Source of the DNA: Trichoplax sp. H2
Lineage: Eukaryota
NCBI GenBank assembly: GCA_003344405.1
Contig: NOWV01000191.1
Coordinates: forward strand, 1-64,000
Reading direction: 5' to 3'
Length of the DNA: 64,000 nucleotides
Shown here: piece after piece, positions 20,626 through 63,762 of the stretch
Layout of the letters: the number at the start of each line of letters is the position of its first letter
Position numbering within the stretch: the first letter of the stretch is position 1
Notes under the pieces: generated by a model
Database searches by the model: none
The model's input: the letters and a program-made list of their open reading frames with translations, nothing else
Told to the model about the DNA's origin: nothing
Position numbers and translations under genes: made by a program

Positions 20626-23600
20626 TCAATCAATTGTTTTGTATAATGAAAATAAGTGATATAGTACCCTTAATGTTGATTTAATATCCTTAGAAACCAC
20701 ATCTGTAATCACAACAACAAAAATTAATAAATATCTTTAAGACTATTTGCTGTTACATCATCATACATACCTGCTGATACAACTCTGACTTTAAGCTCTT
20801 CGTTCTGTTCCATTAAATCAAGAGCGAAGGAAACATTATGTATCTGGAATAATACGATGTATATAACATTTATTATTATCACAAGAATTTTGAAAATTAA
20901 AGCTGCGGATAACGCTACTAAGCCTTATGACTTGGTGAACATTCACAAAATACACCAATTTATTACTTCATACCTTTTCCTTTTCATTACTAGGCGTTTT
21001 ATAATATTTATGAAAGGGCACAAAGTATCCTTCCAATAGACCAGTTAATATGATAAAATTAACACCATTATGGAACTTGGACATATATTTTGCAATGATA
21101 AAAACTGAAAATTAAATTCCTGTTGAGCAAATTTGATTATTTCAATAGTTCCCTTACCTGAGTCTCAATATCGTATACCTCTATGTTGACTTTTGACAAA
21201 TGTTTATTTGCAAATGCTGTGAGTGACTAGAAAAAACATCGTAATAAACTATTACTGATAATCTAAGCCAGATGAAGACAATAGATTTAATTATGTAAAC
21301 TATCTATTATTCATGTACAACTTTGCTTACCCGTTTTACTACCTGAAGCTTCTCATCTGTCTGTTCGAATAAGACATCAAAGACATCCCTCCCTGAACAG
21401 AAATAGTATTAAGAAAATCGAAACACAACCTGGCTATTACGCTACATAGCACAAAGACAGTAAATAAAAATCTAACATACCTTGAACACCCGAATTCGTA
21501 TCCCTAAATAGCGTAAGAATCCATTTAGCACGAGAAATTTGCTTATTTTATGAATCGTTAAATCACTTTACTACTGTATTTATAACGCAAGATGTAATCA
21601 ATTATCATTGATATGCTATCGTTATACTTACGACTGAGGGAATCCAGTGATCATTTCTTTAAAATTATTTACAGCTAATCGACCATCCTGCATCTATAAT
21701 GTAACCATAATTTATTGTTAATGTTTAATATTTCTCAGGTTCAGTAACAATGTCATAGTGTCAAAAAAATTCAGACAGCCACTTTCAGTAAGTATACCTT
21801 TACAGAAATGACAGGCATCGACACGTTAGCAGGCAATTTCGGAGGATTTTGACTTTGCTTGGAGATTTCAACCAATATTTGCAAAATTGATATTGCATTC
21901 TTCGAGTAAACTTCTAAGGTTCAAGGGTGGAAAGAAAAAATAAGGAACCGAAATAATACGCATTCACATTAAGAGACTGGGAAAATATAAGATCCTTTTA
22001 TGCTTTAGATCATACATTTATAATCTTCAATACGGTTCAATTCAAAATTATTTTCTCTACATTTTCTATTGTTAAATATCTGAAATCACTTACTTTCGAC
22101 AGACCAGTTCTTTCCACTTTCGGGATGTAACCACCTATGCACGTAATCCAATACGACTCTTAACCGTTCTTTCTACTCAAACAATTGCAAATAAGAAGAG
22201 ACATTATTGTCAATCATAGATTAAATAAACTATCACACCGTAATATTCACCGATTACAATTCAATTTCTATTACCTGACTTGCCACAGATTGCGCAATCT
22301 CAGGTACATCTAGTTTGGTACGGGCTAACTTTTCTATCCATATTAATACCAAATATTATTACAAAGAATCATCTCAACCATATATTAGTCGGTAAATTCT
22401 CTATATTACTTTAATAGCATTATGATATAGCCGTACGCTATTAATCCATGTAAAAGATGTTATCGATACTTGAAATATACAAATATCGCTTTACCTGTAA
22501 GAATAGCAAGTACTTGTCCATCGTATATATCATCTAATATATCTCTGACAATAATATGTTTATCTGATAATTCATCATGTATCCAATCAGTCAGACACTA
22601 TCCAATCAATAGCATTTTGCATTAAGAGAACGATCCAGTCGTTTAAGTAAGATTTACATTAGCGACACACCATGTGTCATTAATAAAGTTCTATGTTACT
22701 GATGTTAAAATTACAATAAGGTGATGCGTTTAAAAATTGCAGCAGTATAAACAGTTATCTGAGCGTCTTTAAGCTTTACTTGCGCTATATGAAGTTTAAA
22801 ATAATGACGAAATAAAATTGTGACATAAAACTCTTCTTGATATTTTTAAGGTAAATTGCCTAACATTTTAACGGTTTAACCGTGATGCAATTAGTATTAA
22901 CGATATTATTGCAGTACCTCGATCAATTCCTTCACCTTTGCATCTTCTAAAGCTCTCGGTTTAAGCATTTCACGGGACTCGTCTTCATCTTTAGTATGGT
23001 GCATTACAGAAAATAGTAAATTGTAGCCATATTATTACTTTATAAATTATCTTAAAGCTGTAATAAGTAACAATTGTTGACGTGTTCGGCGATAAAGAAT
23101 GAAAAGTAATGTTACAATGTTTGTTACCTAGTACAAAATTTTCTTCTGATATATTGGGTTTGCCTAGCTGGAGAGCATCACGATCGAAACCTTCTAATAA
23201 ATACGCTACAAAATAAAATTTAAAGTCTCTATAATTAATTATATATATTACAACGAATGTTAGAACATTATCTAATGTACTGTATATAACAATCTTAATA
23301 ATATAAACGAACTCCAATAAATCTAATCAATGAAATAGATGTCAAACTTCACGCTATCAATACAGTGCAGTAGGTATAACATTTAATCCAGCATTGTACT
23401 GTACAATAGATCATCCAATAATTATAATAAATGCATACTGTATATAATAATTTATTTTTTATAAGCTCAACGGCAATAACAACACATTCTAGCCATCATT
23501 CTATTAGGTTATAATTTAACACTGTTATGAACCAATATACTCACAAGAAGCAACGCCATAAAGTATGGCGAGTGCCATATGTACGGTACATACTGTATCC

Positions 23601-23707
23601 TTCCTTTATAAACCACTATTACTGTATTTATTTATCCTAGTATTGATGCATAAGCTCTAACCTGGCCTTTGACTTGATTTTTTACTTTTTCTCACACTAA
23701 ATGCCAT
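20626..23707 (-). CDS. PARV: Parvin (alpha/beta-parvin family, two calponin-homology domains), 14 coding exons, ~339 aa
   Basis: Exons 23662-23707, 23128-23205, 22918-22988, 22495-22597, 22275-22333, 22094-22172, 21798-21913, 21632-21693, 21481-21503, 21331-21392, 21158-21226, 20974-21075, 20771-20843 and 20626-20702 splice in frame (GT-AG). Translation includes LTDWIHDELSDKHIIVRDILDDIYDGQVL, RDVFDVLF...KLQVVKRSLTAFANKHL, ETQFHNGVNFIILTGLLEGYFVP, HNVSFALDLM and DIKSTLRVLYHLF...*, matching parvin motifs. An extra in-frame upstream mini-exon (ATGGTAGA, 23901-23908) is possible. Confidence 0.95.
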
Positions 23708-24199
23708 GATCCTGCAATTATTCCAATACGCATTGAATTAACTAAATATCAATATATTCTTTTGATTTCTGCCATAGTAAATTATTTCCCCGATGGTTGA
23801 CAATCACATTTCCGATATGAACATCTCTATCTACTAGGTTTTATTCTAGTTGTTAGCAAGCAAACATGACCAGATATCCTGTATATCTTGTCCTACTCAC
23901 TCTACCATGTTAAATCGTTATCAAAGCAGTATTGCAACTTGGAAACAACAACTCAGGTGCGTAAGTGTGTAGATAATAAAATAAACTCTATTTGGGGCGA
24001 AAGAAGGAGTCAAAACTAGAGTAAATAAGCTAGTATCCATTTCTATGCCATGTAAATTAACGCTGTATTATGTAGCTTGTTAACAATGAAAATGGCCATA
24101 AAAAGACAATTGCAGGAATTTTGAATAAAACGTTGCTGTATTGTGTAAGGACTTTTTAGGATCAAGTTGGGAATATCCGCTTCATTTTAGGTAGTAAAC

Positions 24200-24463
24200 A
24201 TGGCTGCAAGTTGTGGTTACAATTATATTATCATGATTTCTACTATCGATAGTTATTGTATCTACAAGATAGGAAAAAGTAGCAGCAAGCAGCACAAACA
24301 CAAGGAAGATGTCCGTTGTGTATTCTCTTTTATTGATATACGCGTATACTGTATGGAAAGAATCGATGATTGCATAAAGTGTATTTTTGTAATCACCAAC
24401 AGAAAAATTGACGATCTCATCCAGTGTAGAATAAAACTACCGACCAAGGCTAAATTGATATGA
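24200..24463 (+). pseudogene. Degenerate T5orf172/GIY-YIG-like ORF (virus/transposon-type)
   Basis: GYNYIIMISTIDSYCIYKIGKS resembles the G-Y-x-Y...YKIG N-terminus of T5orf172 domains; a downstream ME...LHKV-like segment appears only after a frame change. Intronless. Confidence 0.4.
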
Positions 24464-25830
24464 TCGTCTTGATACAAGTTGATCAAAAATGGAATCATGA
24501 CGAATTCAAACATCAAGAATTATTATTCTACGCGTACATATACGAATACTTGTATGATACAATCAGGAATTTCAATATCGAACAAAGTCTAGTTTCGTTT
24601 GATATCGTCGCAATTCCAGCAAGAATCCTACTAGTACAAGATATTATGTATACAAATTAAGCAAGAATCCTCCTTCAAATTACACTGCTACGTCGGATGA
24701 TAGATTAAACCTACTGTAACGCTTGCCATTTCTACGCTATCGTACAAGACTGTCCAAAATCAACGCTATAGGCTGCTACTCAAGTCCTATTTAGGTCATG
24801 TACTGTACATGACTTCAAAAGGAGTTGAGTAGGTTAGTCATTCATCCATCTAAGTTAATACACCCTTGTGGATTGGGCTTTCTCACCACTACCATTTGCA
24901 AGACTCACCTGAGTAATTGATGATCTTTGTCCCTCTCGTCTACAGCACCCTAAAATATTACTCCTAATGGCAGCACTGCAATTCTTCAACTCTCTCCTAA
25001 TGTAATTCAACCATTAGAAAAATGTTGTTCAATGTGTCTCATTGAAAAGAAGCAGCCTTACTGGAATGAATTTGCTCTCAATTGCTCATCCACGATCGAC
25101 GATAGGCCTCAAAGGTGCAATGCATGCAAGTAGAAGGAAGAAAAACAACAACTTTTTGAAAAGCTTAGGTCGATCCTGTAGACCTGTACTGTAGATGGTC
25201 ACTACTAGCCACTACCGGTGTTGAACGGGATACTTGTATAATGTTTACACTAGAAAGAGCCAGAGGTATACACATGCGCAGTCAAAGTATTTCTTGCATC
25301 TCGTACGAAATTGTACGGTACAGTACAGAGTCTGATTATTTTGGATGGCACCCTGATAAGATAGATTTATTATGTACAGTACGGCCCAAACGAGATCAAT
25401 TCTTACGTTAGATAGAAATATTGTACAGGAATTTCAACGGAATACTACTTTGATTGATTTTTGAAAGTAGGGGTGACATCGAAAATAATCATACTGTACA
25501 CTCAGTGTACAGTAACATCGTGAACTTCATGGTTGGCTTCAAGGAACAGTATGACAAAGTTAAAAGGAAAACCTGGACAGCAACGCAGACGAAAAACCCT
25601 ACCTGTTAGCTATCGAAAGTAGTCCCAAAATATCCCAAAATACAGAATTAGTATGGACATCTTGCGCCTACTTTTTGGGCAGCACAGTACTCATTTGAAC
25701 TCTTTGATGATATTCTATGACTCATTTAAGGTATCATTTAATGGAAGTTGATCAACGAAAACTGGTTTCAACGCTGCTGATCGTATAAACTGTATTGTTT
25801 CCATACGGCAACAATAAGTCGAAGAGCAAT

Positions 25831-27126
25831 TGCGATAGCGGCTGCGCGAATGAAAGGGTGAATAAAAAGAGAACTGGGCAGAATTTTGTCAATCTACAGT
25901 ATTCATACTGTAGCGTTAAGCTGAACTGTACAGTACAGTACAGTACATACAGTATAGTACAGTACAGTATGAGTGTACTGTACACTGTACAGTACTGTAC
26001 AGTACTGTACTGAACTAGGGACTACAGGATGATCACTGTACAGTACTGTACACTGTACAGTGCTCTAGAATTGCCAGTCCCGATTAGGGTGCACTGCGCA
26101 GTGTCAGTTGGTGGGGACACTAGTGGTACTGTGCGGTACAGTACTCAGTAATACAGCAGGATGTAATTTGTGCAGGTGCTGGTGTCCAGTACTACAGATT
26201 TCAACCAACGCTGAATATTAATGAGATGGAAAGCAAATTATCAACTGGAGCAAATCGCATCCAGTTGACCCTAGTGACGTAGCAAGATAGGACTGACACC
26301 AGTGGTGTGACTACCGTACTATCGCTCACCTCAAGAGTTAAGACGTCAAGTCCCCAACGACATCTATCCTAGCTTTGACCCTAGTGACGTAGCAAGATAG
26401 GACTGACACCAGTGGTGTGACTACAGTACTATCCCTCACCTCAAGAGTCTAGACAACGACATCTATCCTAGCTTTCCTATTTTACTTGATGGGGGCGATT
26501 TGGGCCCAAAAAGTCTTTCAAAAAGAGGCCTAGTTTATTATTGTATAGCNNNNNNNNNNNNNNNNNNNNTGCGATAGCGGCTGCGCGAATGAAAGGGTGA
26601 ATAAAAAGAGAACTGGGCAGAATTTTGTCAATCTACAGTACAGTACTCATACTGTAGCGTTAAGCTGAACTGTACAGTACAGTACAGTACAGTACTGAAC
26701 TAGGGACTACAGGATGATTGCTGTACTGTACACTGTACACTGTACAGTGCTCTAGAATTGCCAGCCCCGATTAGGGTGCACTGCGCAGTGTCAGTTGGTG
26801 AGGACACTAGTGGTACTGTGCGGTACAGTACTCAGTAATACAGCAGGGTGTAATTTGTGCAGGTGCTGGTGTCCAGTACTACAGATTTCAACCAACGCTG
26901 AATATTAATGAGATGGAAAGCAAATTATCAACTGGAGCAAATCGCATCCAGTTGACCCTAGTGACGTAGCAAGATAGGACTGACACCAGTGGTGTGACTA
27001 CAGTACTATCGCTCACCTCAAGAGTCTAGACAACGACATCTATCCTAGCTTTCCTATTTTACTTGATGGGGGCGATTTGGGCCCAAAAAGTCTTTCAAAA
27101 AGAGGCCTAGTTTATTATTGTATAGC
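25831..27126. repeat. Direct duplication across a 20-N gap (25831-26549 vs 26570-27126); probably uncollapsed haplotypes
   Basis: Both copies abut the gap (N 26550-26569). Copy 1 has a longer TACAG array and two copies of a ~110-bp unit (starting TTGACCCTAGTGACGTAGC at ~26265 and ~26375), whereas copy 2 has one. Confidence 0.9.
25927..26062. repeat. (TACAG)n/(CTGTA)n pentanucleotide array in both orientations (shorter version at ~26635-26750)
   Basis: GTACAGTACAGTACAGTACATACAGTATAGTACAGTACAGTA followed by GTACTGTACACTGTACAGTACTGTACAGTACTGTAC; self-complementary. Confidence 0.9.
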
Positions 27127-28436
27127 TGTAATCCACTAGAATTATCCAACATACTTTGACTTGATTGACTTTCTCTTTGATTTCCTCTGTGCAACTCTGA
27201 AATCCTGCTCTACTGTACAATAAGTGTACATGGAAGCTTGCAAATTCCTATTGTAATTCCACTAGGTCAACTGGTGACGTGACACGCTGATCCAAAATGA
27301 ATTACGCCTTTCTCTTCTGCTTGATAGCGTTGCTCATCAAATTAAGCGCTGTGAGTTTAATCATGTCATAATTAGAAATGAATCATTTACAGTTACAAAG
27401 CTTAAAACTAAACTGATCGATTGCATCTTGGTTACGCTATGGATGCTATTACAATACTTATTAGTCGAGATGCTATGATATGTCACAACGATGAACATGT
27501 TGAAATGTTGTTAGAGTTAGACGCATAGTCTATAAAGTAGCGATAGACACAAATCAATATTGACTGCTATGGTAAAAGATCAACTACAATATCATACCCA
27601 CATTGTACAACCAAAGCAAATTAGAATTTATAGACTCTACATTAACAAATAGGACCATCTACGACATTCATAGTTTGTTCTCAATACTAAGGCGTAAGAT
27701 AATAGACTAATACACTTTGCTTGAATTTCAATCATTCCATAGGGTCAATTTAGCAATTCACGATGTATTTGCGTATGTCCTAAAGATACCGAGTACACCA
27801 AGATTAGAAATGTATTTATTAAAGTGGTGGAATCCACTCAAAATTGGTAAATTCATGGTGATATCTTTGCTGTTGCAATACGTTTTCATGTATAATATCA
27901 TCCAAATGATACTGCTTTATAAAGTCAGCCACAAGATAGAATGATAAACGTAAAATGTCTTCAAACTCCTACTTCCGGTCTCATCCAAGGATCGCAACGT
28001 GTAAAATAGTTACTGTTATTGTGCGAAGACACATCCGTGCCTAAAGACACAGTGATGTTATTACATACCGATACTGTTAGTAATTCTTATACAGTTTGCA
28101 AGCGTACCACTTGAACTGATTCTAGAATTAGTGTTAACGCCACTGGGTACTGTAAGTAAATGGCATTGATTCCTTGTAATTACTTGGATATGAGATTGAC
28201 TTCAAGCTATAGCCGCAAAATGGAACGATTATTTGTATCTAGTCAAGAACTATTCACAAAAGTCATTACTGCTAACTGATTAAACGATAAAATATCTAGG
28301 TCTTCATCAATAATTATCATTGATACTTCATATAGAATTGTTTGATATCATGCCTCTTACTCAAAAGGATGAAGTACTGTATAAAGAACCACTTTATCCT
28401 ACATTTCTGATATATACAAAATCGCTTTCAATATAG

Positions 28437-29695
28437 CACCTGCTCCAAGGCTGTCGGACTACCAGATATATTTTGCCTACGTTGCCAGTGTAAATTTCAA
28501 ACTCGCAATATGGGTATCAATCAGGTAAATTGTTAGAATAGCTAAAATGCTCTGCCAGCTGGGTATGATTATACAGCATACTAGCCTGGTAACATAGCGA
28601 ATGTAATGACAGATATAGTAAGTTGAAAACACACTATGAAATTAAAACATAAAAATATTGTACCTCTTGGAATATCTTTATCACATTTTTCTCAACGTTG
28701 CGGTTCAATACTTTTACAGGGCGTTGTTATTTTCGTCTTGGTTGTATTAGCATTGCTGCTATTGTATCTAACGTATTCAATTTATGAAAAGTACGCAAGG
28801 AAAGAACTTCCAAGAAATAGCCAGATGCAGGTAAATTATCAATAGTGCTAATTGTTAGTTCTAAAGTGACAGCATATTTCCATCTCGACCAGTAACCCCT
28901 ATATAACTAATTGAAAATTGTCATGATAAGAAAACGATCATGATTTGACTACTCAATACTATAGCAAATGGCGTGATTAAAATAGGGACACCCTAGTTGA
29001 AAATTGGAATAGATGAAACTTTCTTAAATACACGTATTTCGTTTCAGTAGTTGGCCATCATTAATCTTACTCTTCATCTTAATACAAGTGTTACAAGACT
29101 CTAATAAGCTAGTAAACCTTACTATTAAAATAAACTACAGCCCTTTTAATAGTTGTGATTTAAAATTTATTTTTTACCGACACTGAAATTGCGTTTAGAG
29201 CCAGTCACATAGGCATATCCCATTAGGCGCATTAAAATTTTAATAGAATTTTATATATAAGCATTCTAAAGTATCCACTCTATGGCTCATGCCGCAATGG
29301 TGCTTCTATTTACAATGAGAAACTACCTACTATTGTTACTAAGTAGGCGTTTGCAGGAGTTTGTAAAATACGTACAGATTATAGAAATATTCGTAACTAG
29401 AATAATTACAATCAGTAATAAATATCCTCGAATTTGTATATCTAAATTTTAGCTAGACAACTGATTAAATACGCTTGATGACTTACACTCCAATGTCTTT
29501 GAAAATGGATCTTGTAACGGAATTTTCTTATCACCAGCCGACATTAACATCACTAATTATATTTCTCTATAGAATCAACAAAATTTGAATACCGAATCCA
29601 TTTCCAATCGAATTATAAGATTTCGCACCAACTGGAAAAAGCAACTTACTGAACAGCAAAATAATATTTACGTTCGTCATAATATGTTATCGTAA
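28437..29695 (+). CDS. TMEM9: TMEM9/TMEM9B-like single-pass membrane protein (last three exons; 5' exons unresolved)
   Basis: Exons 28437-28524 (TCSKAVGLPDIFCLRCQCKFQTRNMGINQ), 28720-28830 (GVVIFVLVVLALLLLYLTY..., TM helix) and 29573-29695 (...NRIIRFRTNWKKQLTEQQNNIYVRHNMLS*) join in frame. They match TMEM9 hallmarks CLxCxC(K/R)(Y/F)xxR + TM and C-terminal WKxQxxEQ....(F/Y)xRHxMLS. Confidence 0.85.
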
Positions 29696-32600
29696 TTTTG
29701 AGCTGCATACTAATATTTAGGAATGATGCGATAGCAAAATACTACATTTTAATAAATGCTCTACAGCTAAAATAAATCAATTCTCTGATAGCAGTCTGCA
29801 CTGATTTATCCCACAAATATCATTATCTGTTTTAAGTTCCGGAATGTTTCATCATGTAGATTAGGAATATTTTGTTGAAGCTTCAATTTTGTTCAAAATT
29901 TAGTCCACTTCAACAGCAATCTTAGCCAAGATTAATCTAGATTATTTTTATGCTATTTAAATGTCTAAGTAGATACTATCAATTCTTTATCTGAAGTAAT
30001 ACAATGTCTCCAGTGTTGAAGTTACTGCAGATTGCGGCAATTCGATAGGATGTGGTATCATAGACTTGTCAGACCTGACCGTTACACCGAATGACTCTAT
30101 TTTTATAGTCTATAATAAGAAATTCTACTGCAGAATCTTTGATTTATACTTATTCTGAGACGTGTACTTGCAACATATCACAGAACGAAATGCATGTACT
30201 GTCAATTTAATTAATTAATTATGAGAAAATACGTCACTTAAGTAATTGCGTACTATAAAGAGACCTCCAATTTCAGTGGTGCCCAATTATAGCATCGCTA
30301 AGACTATTATTATTTAATGGGTTACTATTTATTATATTATATTTTGAACTGCAATCATGGTCCAAAATAAATGAGCTAGAAATATTAAAATTTGAGAATA
30401 ACAAGCCGATTCGAATTGGCATAGAAGCAATGCTGTAATGATTTAGCTAATTGCAGCAGTTATGTAGTAGGGTTAAGAAATCATGCACTAGAAAGGCTGA
30501 TCATTGATCAACGACATGGGATGGTCTATCAACTTCTATGTTAAAAGTGAAAAGAACGTACAAAGTGCGTACTAAACAGACTGACTGATTGGCATCCGTG
30601 TTCCTTGGTAGGTTCTTTAGCGTCATTTATATCTCCAAGTTTACCGTAGCTAAAATCATACCTATTATTCATGTAAGATTTTGCTTCACCAATCTTTTCC
30701 ATTATTCATAAAATATCATCAGCACTCAATACATAAAGAACAAATTTGTTGGTGAATCACTATCGTAGTTATCTAGATTTTAAAATACGATCTTACTGAG
30801 ACTTATTGCAACGTTTACGTTGATTTATCGTATCACAGTAATGTATAATGCTGAGAAAGGAGCAGCACATCGCATTTGAAAAAAACTGAAGCTGTATGGA
30901 ATTTCAATAAAATTTGTGCATCCGGTAGCCTATCGCAGTATACTGAAAACAAGCATAAACAAAATGAAAGAAAGTTATACCTTATGCAATAATGTGTTGG
31001 AAGCTGTAAAAGAATGATATACTGTACGAGTAAAATCACAAATTTTACATCCACTCAAAGTAGAACTTTTTATCTAAAATAATTTTTTATTAAAGCGTTT
31101 AAGTAGAAATGATCGAAAAATATAAAAGCAAACTATATAATGAATAAAATACAAATTAGTCATTGCCCAGACGTTTCTAAGGCAGAATTTTGTGAGCAAT
31201 TTAATAAACCGTTAATTAATAGAATAAATGTGCTATAACTACGAGTGCCCGAGTACTGCACGTCATTGTACAAAAATGTAAAGAAAATAAACACCCGATC
31301 GTCACGCATACATCCGTGAGCAAATTTTTAAGCTACGAAACAGCCAATTGTAACTATCTCAATATAACGATGAATCTGTTAACAAATCGATAAAGAAACC
31401 TGTCTCAATAATTATTTTTAATTTATTATCAAGTTATTAAATTTAGGTATCATGAATATTAATATGTGATCAATTACGTCCGTTAAAATAAAATAAAACA
31501 GTTAAAATTACGGGTAAAGCGAAATAAATAAACCATGAAAGAATTAATGGGTAACTATGATTTTAACTAGCTAGCATCATTAAATTCCTAAGTTGATAAA
31601 TGATGATAATTTTCATCAAAATTCATCAGAAATTTGGAAATATTTGTAGGATCTCAATGTTATTGGCAACAAACATGGTAAAGATGATCATCACGTAATC
31701 AAAGTATCTGCCAGATAGTTGTCAACTACTGAGATTAAAACGTAGAACAAAATTTAGACTATTCCTATTAGACTATTAGGCTATTCCTACTCATTAAAAA
31801 AATTCAAAACAGCTATTTAAACTTACGAGATGCTCGTATTTAAAGTCTACTGATGTAAATTTTTTCGTCCTAAACAATCAAGATTATATATTACCTTCAA
31901 TAGACCAAAATATATACAGTACAAAGGTCGATCGATTTGAGATAAAATAAGACACTATGTTTAAGACAATATTTAAGGGCCTGATTCTCTTAGCAAGCAT
32001 TTACTATTGCTAGATAGTTTATTTTATTTTCAGGCTTACAGTATGATTATATCTGAATCTTAAATAGACAAGTTTATCGTTTTCAATTTAAGATTCAATT
32101 TTATCATACCTTCGATTTTTTCAATGAATAGTTAAATGTATATAATTCGCATAAATGTCTAATAAAATGTATCTTCAACACGAAATAAATACATCTTATT
32201 ATCTCAATCATTACTATATATACAAAAAATCGAAACTTACGACAATTGTGAGAGAATTGCATTTAGTAATATTTTTAACCTTGATCACATTAGCTAAATT
32301 TATAAAAAATTTGGGATACCTTTACCGCTTCACTACTTGAATTTTTACGTATAGCATCATGATCTCAATCATCCATGTACGCGTATTCATTAACACAACT
32401 ATTAAAGAGTGTAGAAAGGTGTCCGTAAATATGTATATTATGATAGGGGAAATCCTGTCGATTACGGATTGTCCCCAGATAGTGTGACGTGTAAGTCTAA
32501 ATATCATGATTACGATTAGCAATAAACATAAAAAGTGACTACTATTTGAATATAGGTGCTAAGTTTAATTAGCAGCTTTCGCATGCTCAGCTAGAGACAA

Positions 32601-48146: not shown

Positions 48147-48220
48147 TGACGTCATCAGTCGAATGCGACGTCATTAATGGCGTCATAAAAAAATCAGGAT
48201 TGCATCTACGACTGCGCAGT
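48147..48220. promoter_or_regulatory. CpG-rich motif cluster: CRE and CRE-like sites plus palindrome ACTGCGCAGT
   Basis: TGACGTCA 48147-48154, GACGTCA 48167-48173, GGCGTCA 48179-48185, ACTGCGCAGT 48211-48220, within a locally GC-rich patch. Confidence 0.4.
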
Positions 48221-51200: not shown

Positions 51201-54200
51201 TATGGTAACAGCCTTAGTATTTGTGCAGCTATGTTTTCCAACTAGCCACAATACGATGAGTCATCCATACCATGGCGTTAGCGATTAAGCAACGGACTGT
51301 TGAGCTAGTAATATATGACCGTTACGCATCTATTTCTGATTCTACCGTCAACAAAGACTCAATACCTTGTTGTATATGGTCATCTGTACTCTAACATAGA
51401 ATCTTCATTTGCTGTCTATGGTTATGAGTTTATAACTTGAGTATAGCCTATAATAAACATAGTTAGCCACACTATCGTAATTTGTACTAAATATGGCTAA
51501 TAATCTGCAATCTAACACTGAATTTCGTTACAACAAGTAAACTGTATTTACGCAAATTTTCAATTTAGTCTTTATTTGATCAAATTCGATATTGGAAATT
51601 GATACACATTTTGCAGTAGATATGTCCGCTGAGGCATGCAATGTTGCTCTATACTGATATTCAGTCAAACTGTTCAAATGTTAAGATTGTTAGTTCGATG
51701 CAAATTATTACATTACTACTGAATTTTGCATTATTTAAATGCCTATAAACCGTACTATTCCCGTCTGCAAAGGGACAGTATGCTAAGCTAGAAAAATTAA
51801 ACTGTTCATCAACATTTAACAAATCAATAACTCCTCAGACATTTATACTGACACGTAATATATTTATATAAAAATATGCTATAACTTCACGTAAACACAT
51901 GGAAAAAATAATAGCAGCAATTTTAGGCTTACTATACTTATGTACTATCATAACAGAAAATTAACCCATGAATTAATGTATTGAATATTAATCTTGTTAA
52001 ATATATATCAAAATAATATCTATGACATTAATAATAACGAATCATATTATGAACAACTCAACGTTAACCTTGTAAGATCTCTTTACTTCACTTATATTTA
52101 ATCAATTTGCCAGAATTAGCAAAACACTATCTTATGTCATAACAAGAATGGCCTATATAGATATAGCCTTCAAGTTCAAAAGGTTTATTAAACCACTATG
52201 CAAATCACGTTCTGGGAAATCCGTCGTAAATCACTTCTCCTCCATCGTAAGAACAGTCGAAAGTGGATAAGATAAACTGGATAATCAATCATACATAGCC
52301 AATTTTCAATCAATCACAATTCCATATGTGATGGAGGGTTCGATATCTCAGAGGATTGAGATTTAGTCGCCATTTACAATTATTACAACAAAGGGTTTAT
52401 GAAAGTTATGCTTTATTGTAGGTTAGTAATGTGAAGTACAGTGAGGTAGTTACGGTAGATTAGCGTGCAAGCTGTCGTGAGTAACGAGTAGAAGTATTAG
52501 ACTGTGAGAGACTAACTAGAAGACTAACTGAGAGGCTAATGATCTCTGAGGTAGAAATCGCCGGTATTTATAGTTTTAAAGATAGAGCACTTGCAGAGAA
52601 TAGGATTGTGGAATTAGATACAACATATACCATAACAGGTTATAAAATAGCAGATGATTGTAGAAAACAGCGAGTATCGTAATAACTAAATGCAGTAATC
52701 TATATATGAATGTAGAGTAAGAGGACTGTAGATCTGTCTAAATATAAGAGCAATACAACATGTCTATATTTAAGAGTAGAATATAGTTACAGTATATTCT
52801 AAATACACTACAGTTTGAATGCATAGTTGTTTCTTGAATACTATTTAAATTGTCCCTTCATCAATTACAGTATACGAGAACAGTATATCGTATTTGAATA
52901 TAAAATCTGCTATAGTTTTAGATTTTTTCTGTTTTGAATCACTTCTCGATGAAGCTACCACGTCATCTTCTTAAAATTACTACAACTTTAATCCAAACAA
53001 TTGAGATCGATAAACGAAATTTTATGATTATTAATTAAAGTGATCATTTTAGTAAATAGTTGCATTGTACTGAAATTATTATTCAGCGATGTATTATACA
53101 GATGATAGCAATTTGCCGTTAAAATATGAAAGAATTTAATTTAAACTTTCTTTTGTCCTAATTTAAGAAACTAATAGCAGAGCAATTAAGTAACAGAATT
53201 TGTTGATAGACTCACAAATGCAAGCATTCTAGAGAAAAAATTAATATTGCGGTGACAATTAACTACCAATTTATAAGTTCCTTCAATGTTGATGTTTACA
53301 GCTGTAAAAGATGGATGTTATGCTATTTATTCATTCCCAAGCTATGAGACTATACAGTACTATCTAAAAGTAGATTGAGACAATACTAATTGAAGTATTT
53401 ACTATAAGTCTACACAATCAAAGTAGTCATGTATTTAAGTTATTGATAATTACATAAATGACAGATAGTTGTTTCTATTTCACATTGGTATATTTTAGTT
53501 CAAATTTTTATGCGGTCTAAGTGTTCGTAATAATAGGGTAGAGGGTCGCAATTGCTTCTAGTTTGCAAGCTGCATGCAATTAATTCTAATGGATGTTAAT
53601 TAAGATAAAAAGAAATATTATAATTAGGTGATTATAATCCAAATAATAAAGTTAATTCTTTATCTGAACTGTAGCTAGTCATCGAAACACATTATCAACT
53701 AGGCATGTTGTACTGGCTTTTATTTCTATTTTCTGTTTCATTTTTATCGTAATTACTGAGCAAGCAATTGTATATTTATAATTATTTCCATGGATTCTTG
53801 AGATTAATAAATTTATGACCAATTAATGTAATGATTCTAAATGCGTTATCAACTGCTTTGCCTGTTGTATAGATTGATAGAAATGTTGCCATGGTTGTGT
53901 ATAGTGATATCACTAAGGTAAACAAACAGGAATTATTACTATATTAAAGATCAAAATTCATTATATTAAAAGCGTGGATTATGTTCAGTTTAGTTCAAAC
54001 AATAGATAAATTAAGTGGCAAAGTGCTAACATGGACGGACAATTGAATCCCGAATTCTATTTTTAATAGTATTTGACGTCTTTTACGGTATTAGTTGTTT
54101 TAAGAAATTGTATTGGAAACAGGTCAAATCACAACTTTTCATTCAAAAGTAGAATTTAAAATAATGAAAGTTGCCAAGGATAGAAAATTATAAGAAATTG

Positions 54201-55899
54201 GAACAGTAAATCATGTACTGACACCTTTGTTACAATTATGGAATTTAAATTATTAGAAACTTTTCCATTTCTCCCACTCAATTTTTTTACCTTTAAAATT
54301 CTATTCAGAGTGTTTCAATAGTTACTTTCATATTTATAGCAAGTTTATGACGGTTGCCCCTCAATTATGTACCTTTATGTATGCTTTGATATTAAAGAAA
54401 AATGTCACCAAATTCTAGATATACCGAGTAATTATCCAATATCGACACCTTATCCACCTTAGAATATCCTTATTGAGTATCATTTATCAGTAATCTTTAT
54501 CGAATTTCTATTTAATCTCTGAGATGAAGAACATGAAATGATAACATTAATTATTAATTACTACAATTTAACTCAATTTTTGATATCATAATTACTCTAA
54601 AATGCTTTGATAGGAAAACTTAATTGATAATAGGGGTTGAGAATTCAAAGTTAGCACAGGTAGCTATCCATGAATCTATTCTCATAATTTGGCGTCAACA
54701 CCAGAAATCTGATTTAATTAATGAAGTAATGTAGCCGGTGCCTACTGAAAAAGCTGTTCAACTTCGAATAGGCTGATAGTGGGTAATACTTTGTGATGAC
54801 TGGTGCTACCTCTCATTTTATACTGGTTTCGCAGGATCCTTCTATTATCTGAATTCATGCGTAGCCTTTAAATCTTAACTAAGTTTTCCTCGGTAATTGT
54901 CTAAGCTAAGCTTATACACAATATTATTCGCAACTGCTATTTATAGGTCTATTTACCTGTAAAAATATTATAAAGACTCCATCTCTTTACCGTAAGAGAT
55001 TCTCGATATCGTAACTTACAGTCATAATAAGACGGTAAGATGCTCATTTTTGCCACATTCAGTTTATCGAATGTTAATAACATCTTATAATTAGCATACA
55101 AGTCATTAGCTTTATTTGGTATTTTATGCATATAATTTTAAGAGAAAATTAATGATTATCACATAATAATCGCTAAAATTAAAATAACTTTAACGCCTTT
55201 CCCATTTAGAAGATTAATATAATAAAGATATAGAGATCAAGGAATTAATTTGGAATCTTATGGTAGTTCCCAGCCTCTAGGCTCTTAAACATTTTAAAGA
55301 CGATATAGTCTGGGATAGACATGGATACATATCCATCTAAGCAAGGCGAGATCTCTCACCAACATATATATTTGCTGTAGCATCTTATCCTAACAAAATA
55401 ATATAATTGTTGCATTGTAATATCATTCATTTATTATTTTCAAATCAGATTATAATATTATTACCTGGAATTGATATATAATAATAATCGTATTATTGAT
55501 TTCGTTGTTATGTTAGTCAATGTTTGGCTAGCAACGCATGACCATTTCATCGTGTGTTTAAGGAAAATAATATGGGTTACTACAGCGATATGAATGGGAA
55601 ATTACAGACAATGTCTTGGATTGAATAGTATCATAATTAACTACGTTTTTTTGAAGTATTATATTCTTGAAGTGATTAGTTCGTTGATCGCAGTCATTAT
55701 ACTAGCAGCATCTCATAGTTAACACCAGAATTTTAGCCAATGAATAACATCGGTATATTAAATGTTATTTTTGTATCACTTGGATATTTCACGCTTATGT
55801 AATTATTTTACTGACACAATAAATCAGTAACTAATAATCGTAATGATAAAACACTATTATGACGTAAACTAGATTTTAAATCCAGCCTTGTACCATCAG

Positions 55900-56021
55900 T
55901 ATAAATAAGCATGGTTCCAATCATTCACAGACAGAGTTCATTAATTTAACAAGAAAGAGACGATTCGATGGGTTAGGATTACTGGCAAGTAGATTGCAAC
56001 CATATCGAAAGTTGACGTCTG
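55900..56021 (+). promoter_or_regulatory. Possible TATA box and untranslated first exon of the RFX gene
   Basis: TATAAATA at 55900-55907 and a strong donor CTG|GTAAGT at 56022, about 2.2 kb upstream of the first RFX coding exon; no transcript evidence. Confidence 0.3.
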
Positions 56022-58229
56022 GTAAGTGATTTTTAATGTTATCTCAGGTAATTTACTTCAATCTTATGAGCAAGATAGAGTAAATGTTGAGCTGTTAAAG
56101 TATGCTTAATATTAGTTGAGTTTACTTGTCCTAAAGCAAAATGGACTTAAGATTTGCTACTTATCAACGCGCAAATAAATAGCGAATACCAATGAATGAA
56201 ATGAATGAATGTATTAACTGCATCCTTACTTTTTAAATGATTACTGATTGCTACAGCTATCAATCTTCAAATTACAAATCCGCTTTAGTTTCACTGAATC
56301 AAAAATATTATTACTTTTCCCACTATGACGATAGACTATTCTATTTACTAACATCAATGCTAATGATAAATTGCAAGCATAGCGATCCAAATAGGAAACT
56401 CTAGAATTGGATTTACGATTAGTCATTATTATTGCCAATGCTATGTACCGTTCTACTTCTAACTCCTTTTCTTTCACCCTTAAAAATGAGTCTATCTATT
56501 TCCAAATTATAACTTTCGATTTACTCCTTTTTCGTCGATACTTATTCCCATAGCAATCATTTCACGATCAGTTTCTTTAAGTTTATTTTTAGAGCTCTAA
56601 TCTCGTTGTCGTCTTTATCGTTGCAGTAGCAATTTATGCTATTTTTAAAAATTGGAAGAAATTACAGCAATTAGCGAGTATTGCCTCTAATTGAAGTTGG
56701 CTGATGTATTTTTTATTTTGGAAAAGAAGATAATGATTAGTCTTAATCCGACTCTGATTATATGTAACTTTGCACTTTCACTTGTGCAGTTTGATATTTT
56801 CACAACCAATCATAATGCTTTCATTCATTAAAACACTAAACCAAAGTTTTAGTATTTAGGTCAAAGTACGTTAACATGAATTAAGTCAGTACTGGATAAC
56901 AAAAAGTATCAGCCATATTTATTTTGATTCTAGTAAAGTAAATTTGACCTGTAGTTATACAGGCTACGCTATGCTTCGTCGTTAAACTTGTGCTCTTCTT
57001 CTTCTAATAATAGAAATAATAATAATAATAACATCATTATTATTAGATAAAGATTGCTTGTGTTATTTTGATCCTATTTTAAAATATGCAAACTGAATCT
57101 GGAAATATCTTATCACTAATGCAGTAATACATTTGATAGGTGTTATTATTTACCACATGCTTTCCCTACCCTGCACCAACTGAAGAATCATACTGCAGGT
57201 CTATCATTGATTGTTATACTTGAAGACATAGTTGGAAACATGTTTTAGTGCTAACGCTCCAATCGTTGTCATGATCTATTCTGTTTATAAGACAGGTTAT
57301 TAATTATATTAGCTTTGAATATAGTCATAGTAATTCATCGACAATCTTGCTAAGGTTGTAAATGATTGGAGAAGAGTTTTTCTGCTATCCACTATTCAAT
57401 TTTCTCACATATAATGATATTCTTTATAGAAATAGTCGATTTATAAATTTTCAAAATCATCTATTTTAATAATTACGGCATAACTTTAAAATTAATTTGA
57501 AGAGCTTGAAAAAAGGATCACAAATAGTCAGTCATCCATGCAAGAATTCATCTCTTGTTACGCGAGTACATCATTAGATATTAACATAATGTAGCTATTC
57601 ACCTGTTTGAAAGTGTAATATAGATTTTTATGTTAAAATTTTCTCAATGACAAATCAATTTTATAATCTCAATTTAACAATCATCTGTAACTTGAAGTGA
57701 CCAAATCAAGGCATTGGGTTAAATCATTTGAGTACATTTCATGCCATAAAAGTAGTTTCACTATAGCAAGAAAGGATAATCTTTCTAGATTACTAGGCGC
57801 TCTAAGTATTGCGTATTATTTCGTTTTATCTATAATAAAAACATGTCAAATTCTGCTATGCTCTTAGTTCCTCTCAAGTATTATGGTTATCTTGATCATC
57901 CTTAGACTATTTTATTTTCTTTCTTAACTTATCACTTAATCTTCTTTCTAACTTGCGTAATTAATATTACAGTACCAAAATATCTGTCATTTATACTACA
58001 TTCATAATGTATTTCCAGTTCAGAAAGCTTCATAGGTATAGCAAACCTTCTTCATCCGAATGCTCTGGCCAATCTACTTATTGGTATTTTGAATGCTTCT
58101 TACATTTCTTATTCCTCAATCTAGAAAAATAATAAATTGATATTTATGCTCTCTCAAAGGTAAAATAAATCTAGCTGCAAGTCATCTTTTTCATATTCTA
58201 TCTTTTGATTGCTGCTCATTGAAGTGAAA

Positions 58230-61200
58230 ATGGGTAAATGAAAACCTACTCTTTATCTCTTAATTGCAAGCAGTTTGTTAGACAGATACTTTGTCTGCTT
58301 TTAGTTTTATTTAATCTAAAATCGCACTGCCTTGCATGATACTATCAGTTCCTCTTACTCTGTTTCTAAGCTCATTCTGTCAATTCTTTTAGATAAGAAA
58401 TTTAATCATTCAACACCAGTTGTCCTTAAATGGTAAGAGAATTTGAAGTGCAATACCAGTATAACTAATTCGATGCCATTTAATGATGTAAAATTCACAC
58501 ATTGTGAATTGACTCTGTAAATTGATAGCTTCGCTGTGCATACTGAGAAGTAGTCAAAGTAAAAATCAATTTAAAACATTTATAGCTCTAATTTGAGACA
58601 AATCCTTCCTATGATGTATTAGTGCTATTATCTAACTATATGAATTTCTTAGGAAAAGTTATAATCGATGATTACGTAAAATCTTGATTAGATACTGAAC
58701 ACGCATGTATTAGTGCTGGTGTTATAAATACCAATGACAGCAACACGATCCAATGATTTAGAATACATTATACTAAAGAATTTTTATAAGGTATTGGTGA
58801 TCGTAATCTAAGAGAAAACTACTAGTCAAAGCATGCAGTAGTATAAGTTGCATCTAATACTTAGTCTAAAATAAGCATTCGCTATCTTACTCAGGAAGCC
58901 ATTGAAGGATTCTGCAAGTTTGCCGTATAATGGTGTTAACTTGAATTTTCTTATCAATTTCCTTTCGTAAAGTCTGTAATTTTACTGTAACTACTATATA
59001 AAGTTTAGTCTTTTTAGTTTGATAACAGGATGCATCTCTTGGTGCTTATGATTGCAGTATATTGGAGTCGATTTTACGAACAACTAAAATTTAACGTAAT
59101 CTATATCTACAAAGCTCAAGGGAGTTATAAATTCCCGTAAATTTCTTTGGATTGCATTAGGTTGATTTGATTTCGCCAGTAATTCAAAGGTGTAGTTGCA
59201 TCATCCTAAATTGAAAGTATGCTGAAAAACATATTTATTTCATTACCATAGTATTCGTACAGTTTTATTGAAAACTGATAATTTATAATGTCTTTCACTA
59301 ACTTACATATTGGTAAAAGTGTAGCGATAAGAAATATTCGCTTGCACCACCTCCGATCGTGGGGGTAAATTTCAGACACTTTCAAAGTATGACGAGGGAC
59401 CACAATTTTTACTGTAGATCAAAGGTTTAGTCCTTGTACCGTGCAAAGTAATGCAGAAATATGCTTATTTGATTTAGGCTCGAGATAAATTACGAAGAGG
59501 CAGAAGGCGTTTGTATACCACGTAGCTTTCTCTATAGCAATTATACCCAGTATTGTCAAGAAGCGAATATCCATGCCGTTAATGCTGCTAACTTTGGAAA
59601 GGTATTTTAATAATAACTACGACAGTTTGAATTTATTGCTGTAAATTATCTATAGATCATCATAAACCAATGATAAATTCATATCAATTATCTACACGTT
59701 TTAGATGATGCTAAAATTGTGCCATCATCATCCCTAATTAATACTCGTCTAATGCAGACTCAAATTTGATAATTATATCTTTAGATATGTGTATACTATA
59801 CGCACATTAACAACATTAAGTGCTAAGTAATGATCCTTTTTTTTATCGTGGAGTATTTCCTTTCCAATGTGATTTCGGTTTATTACTTTAGATATAGCCA
59901 ATAAGAAATCTTAATTTTATGCCATCAAGATGTCTGCATATCATGTATTATTATGACAGTAATAATTTTACTTTCTTTACGTTAGTATCCATCCTAATTT
60001 ATTTCAATGATTTTGGCTTAAACTATGTAGATTCTTCGCCAAGAATTTCCTAAAGTTTTGACAAGGAGATTGGGTCATCGCGGAAGATCAAAGTATGGTA
60101 CTCATTTAGGATCGCATTAAAATTTTACTATTGATGTCAAAAAATACCCTTCTATACTTATGTATCACTAGCCGTATATTTTAAATTTTGAAAAATTCGT
60201 TTAAATCTTTGATTGTTTACAACAGATATGCGCAAAATGAGTTGGATATTTATATTTGGAAGATAATTAAATAATTAATTAGAATTTCTTTAAATCTTTC
60301 TTTAGGTATCACTATTACGGAATTTGTATTAAGGAGACTTCGGAATTCTATAAAGAAATATACGGAAGAAAGATGCTTATTCGGTAAGATCAGTATTCAT
60401 ATTACTATTATATATCATTACCACTACATTTCTAAATTCGGAAACAATGCTTAGTAACAGTCAAGTTAGATTCGAAAGTGTTGATGATATAATAGCATAA
60501 TTTTTTTGCTGTAAACTCAAATTGAAGTAATACTTACTAGCAAGCTAAATTAGGGAGGCAAAATTGTCATATCCATGGTAATTATTATAGTTAAACTACA
60601 AAAATGGTGCGAAGATGTTACTCATATTTTTTTCAGTGAAAAGAAGCATCACAATAATAAAACTTACATAATTATCTTGTAGACCCTTTTTTATTTTACA
60701 AGTATTATACACCTATCATTACAATTCACGATTTGTTTCTAAATTACAATATCATTTCTTCCACACGGTGATTCTGCAATGAAACAGGGAAGAATTATCA
60801 CGAAAGTCGGAGAAAAGGGTACATAGAAAATCCTGAATAGCTTGTATCTTCACTTATAGAAATGAGCAATCGATATTTATCTGTTATACGAATGTAAACA
60901 GTTGTGACGTAGTAAAACTATTCTATTAAATTCCTATTAACATGAGTCAAGATTTATTCCTAAGATTTGTTACAGATCGGTATTAATAAATTGAGTTATA
61001 GCTTTAGGCGGAAATTTATTTAACAATCTTAATCAGATTATGCTGATGAAATGAGTGGTTCTATATTTGATACAATTTTAAAGGCTCAACAATTATAATA
61101 AGAGTGGTGCTAATAGATACAGGAGTGTGCAAGTTTTAGTTAAAAATAATGATAACACTTTAAATAAGTTATAGAAACTTTGAGATATAGTTTCTGATAG

Positions 61201-63762
61201 AAATGTATATTTCTATCCTTTGAATTGCACCAGAAATAAATAAAATAGATTCTTTCCCGGTATATATCGCCTTAATGATTTTCTTGTCGAATTTTTTAGT
61301 TTGAAGGCGAGCATGGGATTTCACAAGTTCAAAATGCCTTAGATTTGCCTAATATTGATGACTGTTGTATTCCTTCTGACTTACCTCAAGACAAAGTTAG
61401 TTGCTTTGATTCTTTGATAGGAAATTTCTATGCGTTTAGGTACTTATTAAAACGCTTACATAATGTAAATATTCTTTCGCTGGATTTTATTACAGATTAT
61501 CACCTTTACTTTAATGTATTCGACTCACTGCCAGCGTATCTTAAGCACCTCGAGTACTCACAACTTTACTGAAGTATGTATCACGTATGATATAATTATT
61601 AGTAAGAAAATATATTGCTAGAAGGTACTGCATAATTATTTTACAGCAGTAGTCTTCATAATGGTAATGCTTGTCCGCTGTTAGACGTATTATCTTTATT
61701 ATTTATTATTATTTGTATAATCGACCTAGTTAAAAATGTTTTGATGTAATTTTTGTTTACAATTTTGTTTAGACATGTGATTTCTTAATTCATTTTTGGC
61801 AAATGCTACCACCTCATTTATATGATATCTTAAATACAGATATTGTAGTTAAGATTGTTGTTGTCTATGATTTATTGGTTTATAAGGTAAGTTAGAGGCG
61901 TAAGTCTAGATTCTGGTTAAACTATTATATCTGATAATTATTTCTAAATGGAATTAAAAAAGAACTAATTGTGCTAGTCTGATTACAAGTATTAAGTAGC
62001 TCACTATAATAGGCCTTAGCTTAATTGCTAGTAAGGCTAGTATATAATTGATTTCGACATATCTTTCAAAGTATTTAAATACTGCATAATTAGTCAATTT
62101 TAAGCTGTAAACTTGGATTCTTAAATTTTAACCGAAATAACTATCAACGTTTAATTTTTAGGCCCTTTGCCAATTTTTAAAGCCCAATCCTCAAGAGTTA
62201 CTACCTGCAAAGTAAATATATCGGTCTAAGCGGAATCTTATTTGCTATTCACTGTCTCTAAACTTACAAACTGATAATTGATTTTTTTTATCTATTTTAA
62301 GCTATGATTGAAAGGAAGGCTATAAATTTGATCATACGTTTTTAAATCTTGAAACCTATCTAGGTTATCCGCAGGTGCTAGAACTTTTGGCAAGAATTTG
62401 CTATGTAAAATTAAAGAAGCGTTAAGTGATTCTATGCAACAGCTGAGGTCGGCAAAGCTTCGGGGTAGGTTCATATAGTTGACTCACAAATTCTTTAATT
62501 TTACCATAAATATGGGTATAATAACTAATGGAGTAAATTTATAATTATACAAAAAATTTAATACCGTAAAATTCACTTAATTTGTTTCTTTTGCAACAGT
62601 GGCAGAATACTTTTGTTTAATGCTTATGCGCTTAACAACCATAAATCACATATTCCAGGTATGATTAATTTCGGTAGGCCTTTTCCAATAACGTATATTG
62701 ATGAATATATGCTTCCTCAGTCAATTCTATAATTAGATATATATTTACTCCATCGTCTATCAGAATTGACATTAAATATGATGATAGATATTTGATTTTT
62801 AATATATTGAGTTCATATCATGAATATAGAAATAAATAATGGTATTGTTATTAGTATCTTTATATCGAATAATCTCTTTATATACCTTATAGGAATCTCA
62901 ATTAATACTTGGTAGTGGACTGTACATGGAGAAGATGCTACGTGATTGGCAGAATATAGATGTGAAGGAAATTTGTAACCAAAGCCTACAGTTGATAAAT
63001 ATCACCCCCATGAAGCATCGAATACTTGCCAAAAAGATTAACAAGTGTAAGTTGTATTTCACGATAAAGATAAATGTGAAGCTTTCACTGGTCGCTAGTT
63101 ATCATAAGTAAAAATATTTTTATGCTATTGATTTGTAATTGTAAAATATCGGTAAAAAATTTATGAACAATCTAATATTGATTTAATGGATTTGATAACG
63201 CAATGACCTTATAATGGCCTGTCTTACCAAAATAATTTATTATGAATCGATAATTTTTTAGCTTGCAAAGAATTTGAAAAATTGCTTGAAAATAAGGGGA
63301 ATCGTGCGACAATTATGAAATGGTTACATGTGATTGTGGATAGATTTATTCTTAAAGTTTGTAAAAGCCAGTTAATATTAGCAATTCATCTATATATAAA
63401 TAGTGAGAATTAAAATTATTAATATTACCTCGTACATTTTCGACTAGAAAAAAATGAAGAGGTACAATCGATTGCAAAGATGTAAACAACTTATGATGAT
63501 TTGGAATTATTTCACATCAAAAGTTATTCGCGAGTTAACACTGCACGGAGCCGATAGCTTTGGTAAAGAAGGAGATGATGTTAATTCTGCTTAAATTCAC
63601 TAAGCCACTAATTCACTATTTTGATGTACCAAATTGCCCTAGGTCATTTTCATTTAATTAACATGCTATGTAGCGAGTATTTAATGTATTTGTTGGAGGA
63701 AATCAGAAATGATGAAAGGCTAAAATTAAATTTAAATATGCTAAGGAAGGAACCAATTAAAG
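58230..63762 (+). CDS. RFX4: RFX transcription factor, RFX4/6/8 group (closest motifs to RFX4); winged-helix DNA-binding domain + dimerisation domain, ~440 aa
   Basis: Exons 58230-58233 (tentative start), 58393-58432, 59478-59601, 60031-60092, 60306-60383, 60788-60818 (tentative), 61300-61395, 61496-61573, 61773-61886, 62162-62211, 62364-62464, 62600-62658, 62893-63046, 63262-63356, 63448-63562 and 63643-63762 splice in frame. Translation includes [25 protein letters not shown]...[58 protein letters not shown] and VIRELTLHGADSFGHFHLI. The last exon is uncertain (possible stop at 63862-63864). Confidence 0.93.

Follow-up and report, generated by a model that had tools for sequence, protein, structure and literature searches.

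In a 64,000-nucleotide stretch of the Trichoplax sp. H2 genome (positions 1 to 64,000 of contig NOWV01000191.1, assembly GCA_003344405.1; hereafter the window), a TMEM9 gene and a single-exon basic helix-loop-helix (bHLH) gene of the achaete-scute b (ASC-b) type lie next to each other, and the same two families stand side by side in vertebrates. Placozoans and vertebrates probably share this adjacency by descent. We further consider that it is ancestral and has been kept by entangled cis-regulation, a reading to which we assign a probability of roughly 0.4. Between 20.6 and 63.8 kb the recognisable genes are, in order, parvin (minus strand), TMEM9 (plus), the ASC-b-type bHLH gene (minus) and an RFX4/6/8-type gene (plus). 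A sequence-only reading of the window had named four consecutive recognisable genes here, and Pfam, tblastn and solved-structure matches recover each of them at its place and on its strand. That reading also took the ASC-b gene to be the next recognisable gene 3' of TMEM9; a Pfam scan of open reading frames (ORFs), Rfam and ARAGORN recognised no other gene in between. The two genes are convergent, as had been described, with ~10 kb between their stop codons. The pair and the spacers around the ASC-b gene have the following layout.

27123..30543, plus strand: TMEM9 transcript, coding sequence (CDS) 27297-29695; from tblastn, RNA contigs and Pfam
~27123-27350, 27743-27845, ~28437-28521, 28717-28828 and 29571 to at least 30260, plus strand: TMEM9 exons, from RNA contigs
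30544..39739, no strand: spacer separating TMEM9 and the bHLH gene, which lie tail to tail; no recognisable gene
39740..40402, minus strand: ASC-b-type bHLH gene, single exon, CDS 40324..39743, stop codon 39742-39740; from Pfam HLH, similarity and RNA contigs
40403..58388, no strand: 18-kb spacer upstream of the bHLH and RFX genes; no recognisable gene in Pfam, Rfam, tRNA and repeat scans

Gene order in vertebrates and in Trichoplax

The vertebrate adjacencies that the sequence-only reading had named are found in print. For human, the gene list of chr1:200.59-201.45 Mb runs KIF21B, CACNA1S, ASCL5, TMEM9, IGFN1, PKP1 and so places ASCL5 directly beside TMEM9 (PMC3760796). The adjacency of ASCL3 and TMEM9B, with PARVA linked to them, appears within 2.8 Mb of turkey chr5 in the order RPL27A, TMEM9B, ASCL3, C5H11orf16, AKIP1, NRIP3 ... 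MICAL2, PARVA, TEAD1, RASSF10 (PMC8470100). The human TMEM9-ASCL5 and bird TMEM9B-ASCL3 pairs resemble the Trichoplax arrangement in that the same two families are immediate neighbours, and parvin is found on the chromosome arm of TMEM9B-ASCL3. They differ from it in that vertebrate parvin lies megabases away with many genes between, and in that the pair exists in two duplicated copies. Since the pair is kept in both vertebrate duplicates (TMEM9-ASCL5 and TMEM9B-ASCL3), it predates the vertebrate genome duplications. The proposal that the adjacency arose before bilaterians thus gains the published human and turkey gene orders, while the species in which the pair has been seen are Trichoplax, human and turkey only.

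The larger claim, that the four genes form one ancient microsyntenic block, is supported only in part. Only TMEM9 and ASC-b are immediate neighbours in both Trichoplax and vertebrates, and parvin and RFX share with them linkage at the scale of chromosomes. Paralogous gene pairs reported across segments of human chromosomes 1, 2, 4, 5, 11 and 12 include RFX8/RFX4, TEAD4/TEAD1, RASSF9/RASSF10, ADIPOR2/ADIPOR1 and SYT10/SYT2 (PMC12616123, published in 2025). These RFX, TEAD and RASSF pairs, together with the position of TEAD1 and RASSF10 beside turkey PARVA, mean that all four genes fit one ancestral linkage group. The mapping of the four Trichoplax genes onto the same set of segments is our own inference: the text of PMC12616123 on these paralogons concerns MGAT4 loci, and TMEM9, ASCL and parvin go unmentioned there. 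Membership of the same ancestral linkage group, and not a place in a four-gene microsyntenic block, best describes parvin and RFX. They would be close to the pair in Trichoplax only through the compactness of its genome, whereas in vertebrates they would lie megabases off or on paralogous segments. ASCL4 and RFX4 we take to be both on human 12q23; the papers in which both names occur seem, by title and abstract, to deal with expression.

The orientation of the pair is not the same throughout. In human the TMEM9 and ASC genes are presumably on the same strand, unlike the convergent pair of Trichoplax, and the distance between them in vertebrates we assume to be a few kb.

Identity of the two genes and their surroundings

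Five plus-strand exons between 27297 and 29692 are 100% identical in tblastn to P0121, which public sources call 'Transmembrane protein 9 [Trichoplax sp. H2]'. P0121 scores 52.7 bits against Pfam TMEM9 (PF05434), where the cut-off is 28.6, and thus belongs to the TMEM9 family. It has 120 relatives at E <=0.001 among 1.84 billion representatives. Splicing of the gene is confirmed by four GT..AG introns joined in contigs of three RNA runs (X14-X16). Further RNA contigs extend to 30543 and probably represent the 3' untranslated region (UTR) of TMEM9. In the same RNA runs, the TMEM9 contigs are far deeper in words than the ASC contigs, a contrast that gives only a hint of unrelated expression levels.

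The bHLH gene is read from an ATG at 40324 to a last codon at 39743-39745, encodes 194 amino acids and has a 5' UTR reaching at least 40402. Its class-A bHLH domain is recognised by Pfam HLH with an E value of 5.4e-18 (65 bits; cut-off 20.7). When the protein was compared with 5.8 billion clusters, 886 matches were returned. Among the best 120 of these 886, ~54 bear achaete-scute names: 50 are ASCL4 or ASCL4-like, three are ASCL5 or ASCL5-like (one from Hydra) and one is ASCL3-like, and none is ASCL1 or ASCL2. The ASC-b-type matches, leaving aside the placozoan-like P0001, score 92-106 bits, compared with 58.7 bits for human ASCL1 (8ubk_O in the structure bank). P0001 is the closest relative among the best 120 matches, with 65% identity over the full length, and presumably comes from another placozoan. 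An alignment with 15 ASC-b-type proteins contains 36 invariant columns, including a segment right before the basic region. In the language-model Atlas an ASCL3 cluster takes second place, which we treat as a lead only. The ranking of similarities, which favours ASCL3/4/5 over ASCL1/2, agrees with the group-B assignment made from the sequence alone, and by this ranking the bHLH gene is ASC-b-like. ASC-c is listed as a separate family, not in human, in Table 1 of PMC5381572.

The exact 194-amino-acid protein is present in public sets as P0246, and the idea that the bHLH gene was unannotated was dropped on that account. The representative of the P0246 cluster, P0247, is a 90-amino-acid model of the same gene, as opposed to the 194-amino-acid ORF. 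Because this representative is so short, length-limited searches can miss the gene, as happened in the cluster comparison above. Three RNA runs cover the 5' part of the coding sequence and the 5' UTR (contigs 40116-40402, 40146-40372 and 40178-40402). This cover is in keeping with low expression, of which contigs are no proof.

The Pfam scan for other genes took in 426 stop-to-stop ORFs of at least 38 amino acids, located between 11.1 kb and the window's end. Matches above the curated cut-offs were confined to HLH (39743-40342, minus strand), RFX_DNA_binding (59473-59607, plus) and BCD_RFX (61773-61892 and 63448-63591, plus). Below cut-off, yet at the expected sites, were three TMEM9 exon ORFs on the plus strand (the best with 27.4 against 28.6 bits) and one CH ORF on the minus strand (22463-22597). 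The 18 further family matches were weak, to unrelated families and all below cut-off; of these, two coincide with an exon ORF of TMEM9 and a third with the ORF of the RFX DNA-binding domain. A search for further features between the four genes gave no Rfam match and no tRNA in ARAGORN.

The genes are unevenly spaced in a window that is AT-rich (~30% G+C) and has two short N gaps. Parvin and TMEM9 are divergent and ~4 kb apart, ~9.2 kb separate the ASC-b gene from the last of the TMEM9 RNA contigs, and ASC-b and RFX are divergent, head to head, at a distance of 18 kb. The small bHLH gene accordingly stands alone in ~28 kb free of other recognisable genes, made up of a 10-kb and an 18-kb spacer. 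The spacer at 30544-39739 shows no Pfam family at E <=0.001 (ORFs of at least 38 amino acids), no Rfam match, no tRNA, no tandem repeat and no spliced joint of RNA contigs.

No RNA source was listed for 33-43 kb, and several bins within 31-39.6 kb and 41-47 kb are without cover in the three RNA runs, which is not evidence of silence. Small RNA contigs of low depth, some of them loose-ended, occur at ~32.3-33.0, 37.6-37.9, 39.15-39.3, 41.7-42.3, 44.3-45.0 and 46.2-46.4 kb. At 32830, 37891-37924 and 41953, contigs, RNA and other, align with the window over short pieces and then diverge, with loose ends of 121-255 letters. Dispersed repeats or transcripts of other loci are the probable source of these loose-ended contigs.

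Scanning of metagenomes with the ASC-b alignment yielded 37 ASC-like loci (157 pattern matches) with flanks of at most 10 kb, probably from animal hosts. Eight of them, L001-L008, form a related set with ~39-40% G+C, and L001-L007 share 87-99.8% nucleotide identity over their whole overlaps; the match in the bHLH region of L001 is 69% identical to the window gene. Across the 37 loci and their flanks of up to 10 kb, the Trichoplax TMEM9 and RFX proteins had no tblastn match. The two tblastn matches (E <=0.1) obtained there with 120 TMEM9-family proteins were rejected as spurious. A profile of 70 TMEM9 sequences recovers four of the window exons, with E values from 1.6e-7 to 5.7e-5; its best match in the loci, L018:18124-18384 (E 0.075), was discarded as a chance alignment of hydrophobic residues. 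Pfam applied to 150 ORFs of at least 62 amino acids (64/64 in L001, 84/84 in L018 and 2/24 in L009) recognised HLH only. In L001 (1-19414) and L018 (1-20637) the ASC-like gene is the sole Pfam-recognisable feature, with ~9-10 kb on each side and ~19-20 kb in all. No neighbour comes within these short flanks, and the absence of TMEM9 from the 37 loci is for that reason uninformative about the adjacency.

Inheritance, inertia and coincidence

We propose that placozoans and bilaterians received the TMEM9-ASCb adjacency from their common ancestor, and that the same adjacency is seen twice in vertebrates. Entangled cis-regulation would hold the pair together, with ASC-b as the regulated developmental gene in its gene-poor 28 kb and TMEM9 as a broadly expressed housekeeping bystander.

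The two genes might instead have belonged to one linkage group and become neighbours independently, once in the placozoan lineage and once in the vertebrate lineage before its duplications. Such a coincidence seems unlikely to us. It draws support from the way in which the finding was made, post hoc, since the match to human maps was sought once the neighbours had been looked at. The presumed difference in orientation between Trichoplax and human also favours it, as does a comparison confined to Trichoplax and vertebrates, to which the 37 loci without TMEM9 add nothing that counts. Rough estimates of chance fall on both sides. If the order inside a linkage group of n = 500-1000 genes were fully scrambled, one particular gene would directly adjoin another particular gene with probability 2/(n-1), or ~0.2-0.4%, and this low prior for each neighbour test counts against coincidence for this particular pair. 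Genome-wide, the same scrambling within groups would produce about a dozen chance pairs between Trichoplax and human, taking ~11,500 Trichoplax gene pairs, a figure that rests on our assumption of the gene number; this second estimate speaks for coincidence.

Catalogues of microsynteny show that truly conserved blocks exist, which again stands against coincidence: 34 blocks were new in the metazoan ancestor, compared with 0 in shuffled genomes, and 162 in the planulozoan ancestor, compared with 17-25 (PMC8851819). As conserved blocks exceed the shuffled expectation, and as the pair survives in Trichoplax and in each of the two vertebrate duplicates, inheritance is likelier than coincidence.

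Inherited adjacency need not imply regulation. The pair could be homologous and selectively neutral, not yet separated in two slowly rearranging lineages and free of regulatory coupling. We place this possibility on the less likely side. Placozoan and vertebrate genomes are, as we assume, among the most linkage-conservative, and the orientation of the pair, on our assumption about human, has not been kept. Moreover, the gaps between the vertebrate genes are presumably short and offer a small target for breakpoints, so that neutral persistence is plausible there. The lack of conserved non-coding sequence in the blastn comparison with the 37 loci points the same way. A neutral history is harder to reconcile with the general scrambling of gene order inside ancient linkage groups. 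It is also opposed by the fate of other old blocks, of which vertebrates lost 91% and 85% of the oldest (PMC8851819): that the pair was nonetheless kept in both duplicates suggests constraint. The same survey describes as unclear whether functional constraint or low rearrangement rates keep microsynteny.

Returning to entangled cis-regulation, the gene-free spacers round the ASC gene of the window, together with the lone ASC genes of L001 and L018, fit a regulatory landscape round ASC-b. A regulatory reading likewise accords with the sparse gene content around ASC-b, with the retention of the pair in two vertebrate copies and with RNA levels that appear unrelated between the two genes. The strongest form of the proposal is that TMEM9-ASCb has been a genuine regulatory block since before the split of placozoans and bilaterians, with ASC-b enhancers in or around TMEM9 explaining the double vertebrate retention; we regard this as improbable.

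Several points weigh against inheritance under shared regulation. The comparison covers Trichoplax, human and turkey only, and chance re-association within one conserved linkage group is possible, with the dozen or so chance pairs estimated above. The orientation differs, if human is as we take it to be, and the short vertebrate gaps that we presume are a small breakpoint target. The assignment to ASC-b is a ranking of similarities and not a tree against ASC-a and ASC-c. Finally, when 29.7-58.4 kb was compared with the 37 loci by blastn, the alignments were confined to the coding part of the bHLH gene, and no shared non-coding sequence emerged.

Flanking genes and comparable neighbourhoods

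The genes on either side of the pair are laid out as follows.

20626..23031, minus strand: parvin gene (single pro-orthologue of PARVA/B/G), from solved-structure matches and a weak Pfam CH match; last exon finishing at ~20629, 5' end perhaps beyond 23031
23032..27122, no strand: spacer between the divergent parvin and TMEM9 genes; no Pfam match in ORFs of at least 38 amino acids
58389..63761, plus strand: RFX4/6/8-type gene, continuing past the window; from tblastn with P0122 and P0123, and Pfam
58389-58439 (P0123) or 59288-59365 (P0122), plus strand: RFX first exon, from tblastn
59479-59607, plus strand: exon of the RFX DNA-binding domain, from tblastn and Pfam
61300 to 63761, plus strand: RFX BCD exons, from tblastn and Pfam; 63761 is also where the sequence-only reading ended the neighbourhood

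Parvin was recognised from three exon ORFs on the minus strand, and not from a full-length model, by a search of solved structures. The ORF at 22463-22597 (CH1) best matches alpha-parvin 9uiu_A (E 4.7e-6), that at 20971-21111 (CH2) best matches 9tp9_B/3kmu_B (E 1.2e-7), and the C-terminal ORF at 20629-20736 best matches beta-parvin 4edl_A (E 8.9e-5). The best matches of all three are parvin chains and no other CH protein, which places the gene in the parvin family. The C-terminal ORF terminates at 20626, the coordinate at which the neighbourhood had originally been said to begin. Additional exon-like ORFs in the region were picked by eye. Between parvin and TMEM9, the G+C content is raised at ~24-28 kb (0.37-0.40 against ~0.30 elsewhere) and no Pfam domain was found; within it lie a (GTACA)n microsatellite (25921-26016) and an N assembly gap (26550-26569).

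On the far side of the 18-kb spacer, the gene called RFX4 from the sequence alone is indeed an RFX factor with a DNA-binding domain and a BCD dimerisation region, and P0123 scores 102.6 bits for RFX_DNA_binding and 216.7 bits for BCD_RFX in Pfam. The narrower name fits less well. The nearest named Atlas clusters are RFX8 (0.96), RFX6 (0.95 and 0.94) and RFX4 (0.88; first by structure), and the two Trichoplax models are named 'RFX4' and 'RFX8' at their source. From these neighbours and names, RFX4/6/8-type describes the gene better than RFX4 in the strict sense. The models also differ in extent: P0122 (338 amino acids) starts at 59288 and is without exons 62893-63356, and P0123 (587 amino acids) starts at 58389. 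At least one of the two is a partial model.

Two further observations concern the part of the window before and just beyond parvin. The other human neighbour of TMEM9, IGFN1, is an Ig/FN3 gene, and a large Ig/FN3 gene also occupies 34-11066 on the minus strand of the window, with an IgGFc_binding N-terminal domain (E 6.6e-43) and many Ig and FN3 domains. The domain sets differ, and the likeness is probably a coincidence. Just 3' of parvin, the minus-strand ORF 19532-19705 has an NDUFB11-like Pfam match (E 0.004; 18.1 bits, cut-off 27.9) and no solved-structure match; it may be a small gene or a chance match.

Among published neighbourhoods, the TMEM9-ASCb pair most resembles atxn10-wnt7 and fbxl14-wnt5 (PMC8851819), in which a developmental gene lies beside an unrelated, broadly used gene in very distant animals. 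As in that class, the developmental gene, here ASC-b, sits in a gene-poor interval. Unlike those pairs, TMEM9-ASCb is known here from gene order alone, in Trichoplax and vertebrates, and its two genes fall below the three-gene definition of a block used in the same survey. A further difference is the orientation, which is not shared if the human genes are on one strand as we presume. A full-text literature search found no main text that names the pair; the supplementary tables of the catalogues lay outside that search. TMEM9-ASCb is thus a further candidate of a known kind, in which a transcription-factor gene and a bystander form a conserved pair.

In published surveys, very few gene neighbourhoods reach back to the earliest animals (PMC8851819). 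Were the adjacency missing from intermediate animals, the case would be no more than an instance of linkage conserved at the scale of chromosomes in a compact genome, a phenomenon already familiar. If true, persistence of the pair from placozoans through to birds and mammals, in each of the vertebrate duplicates, would allow shared regulation and inertia to be tested cleanly against each other, and as a regulatory block the pair would be among the very few still adjacent from placozoans to mammals. A published paper ties ASCL3 and ASCL5 to salivary-gland and tooth development. The pair, if genuine, would open a way into the regulation of ASCL3/4/5-type genes, about which little is known, and hint at where to seek the control elements of ASCL3 and ASCL5.

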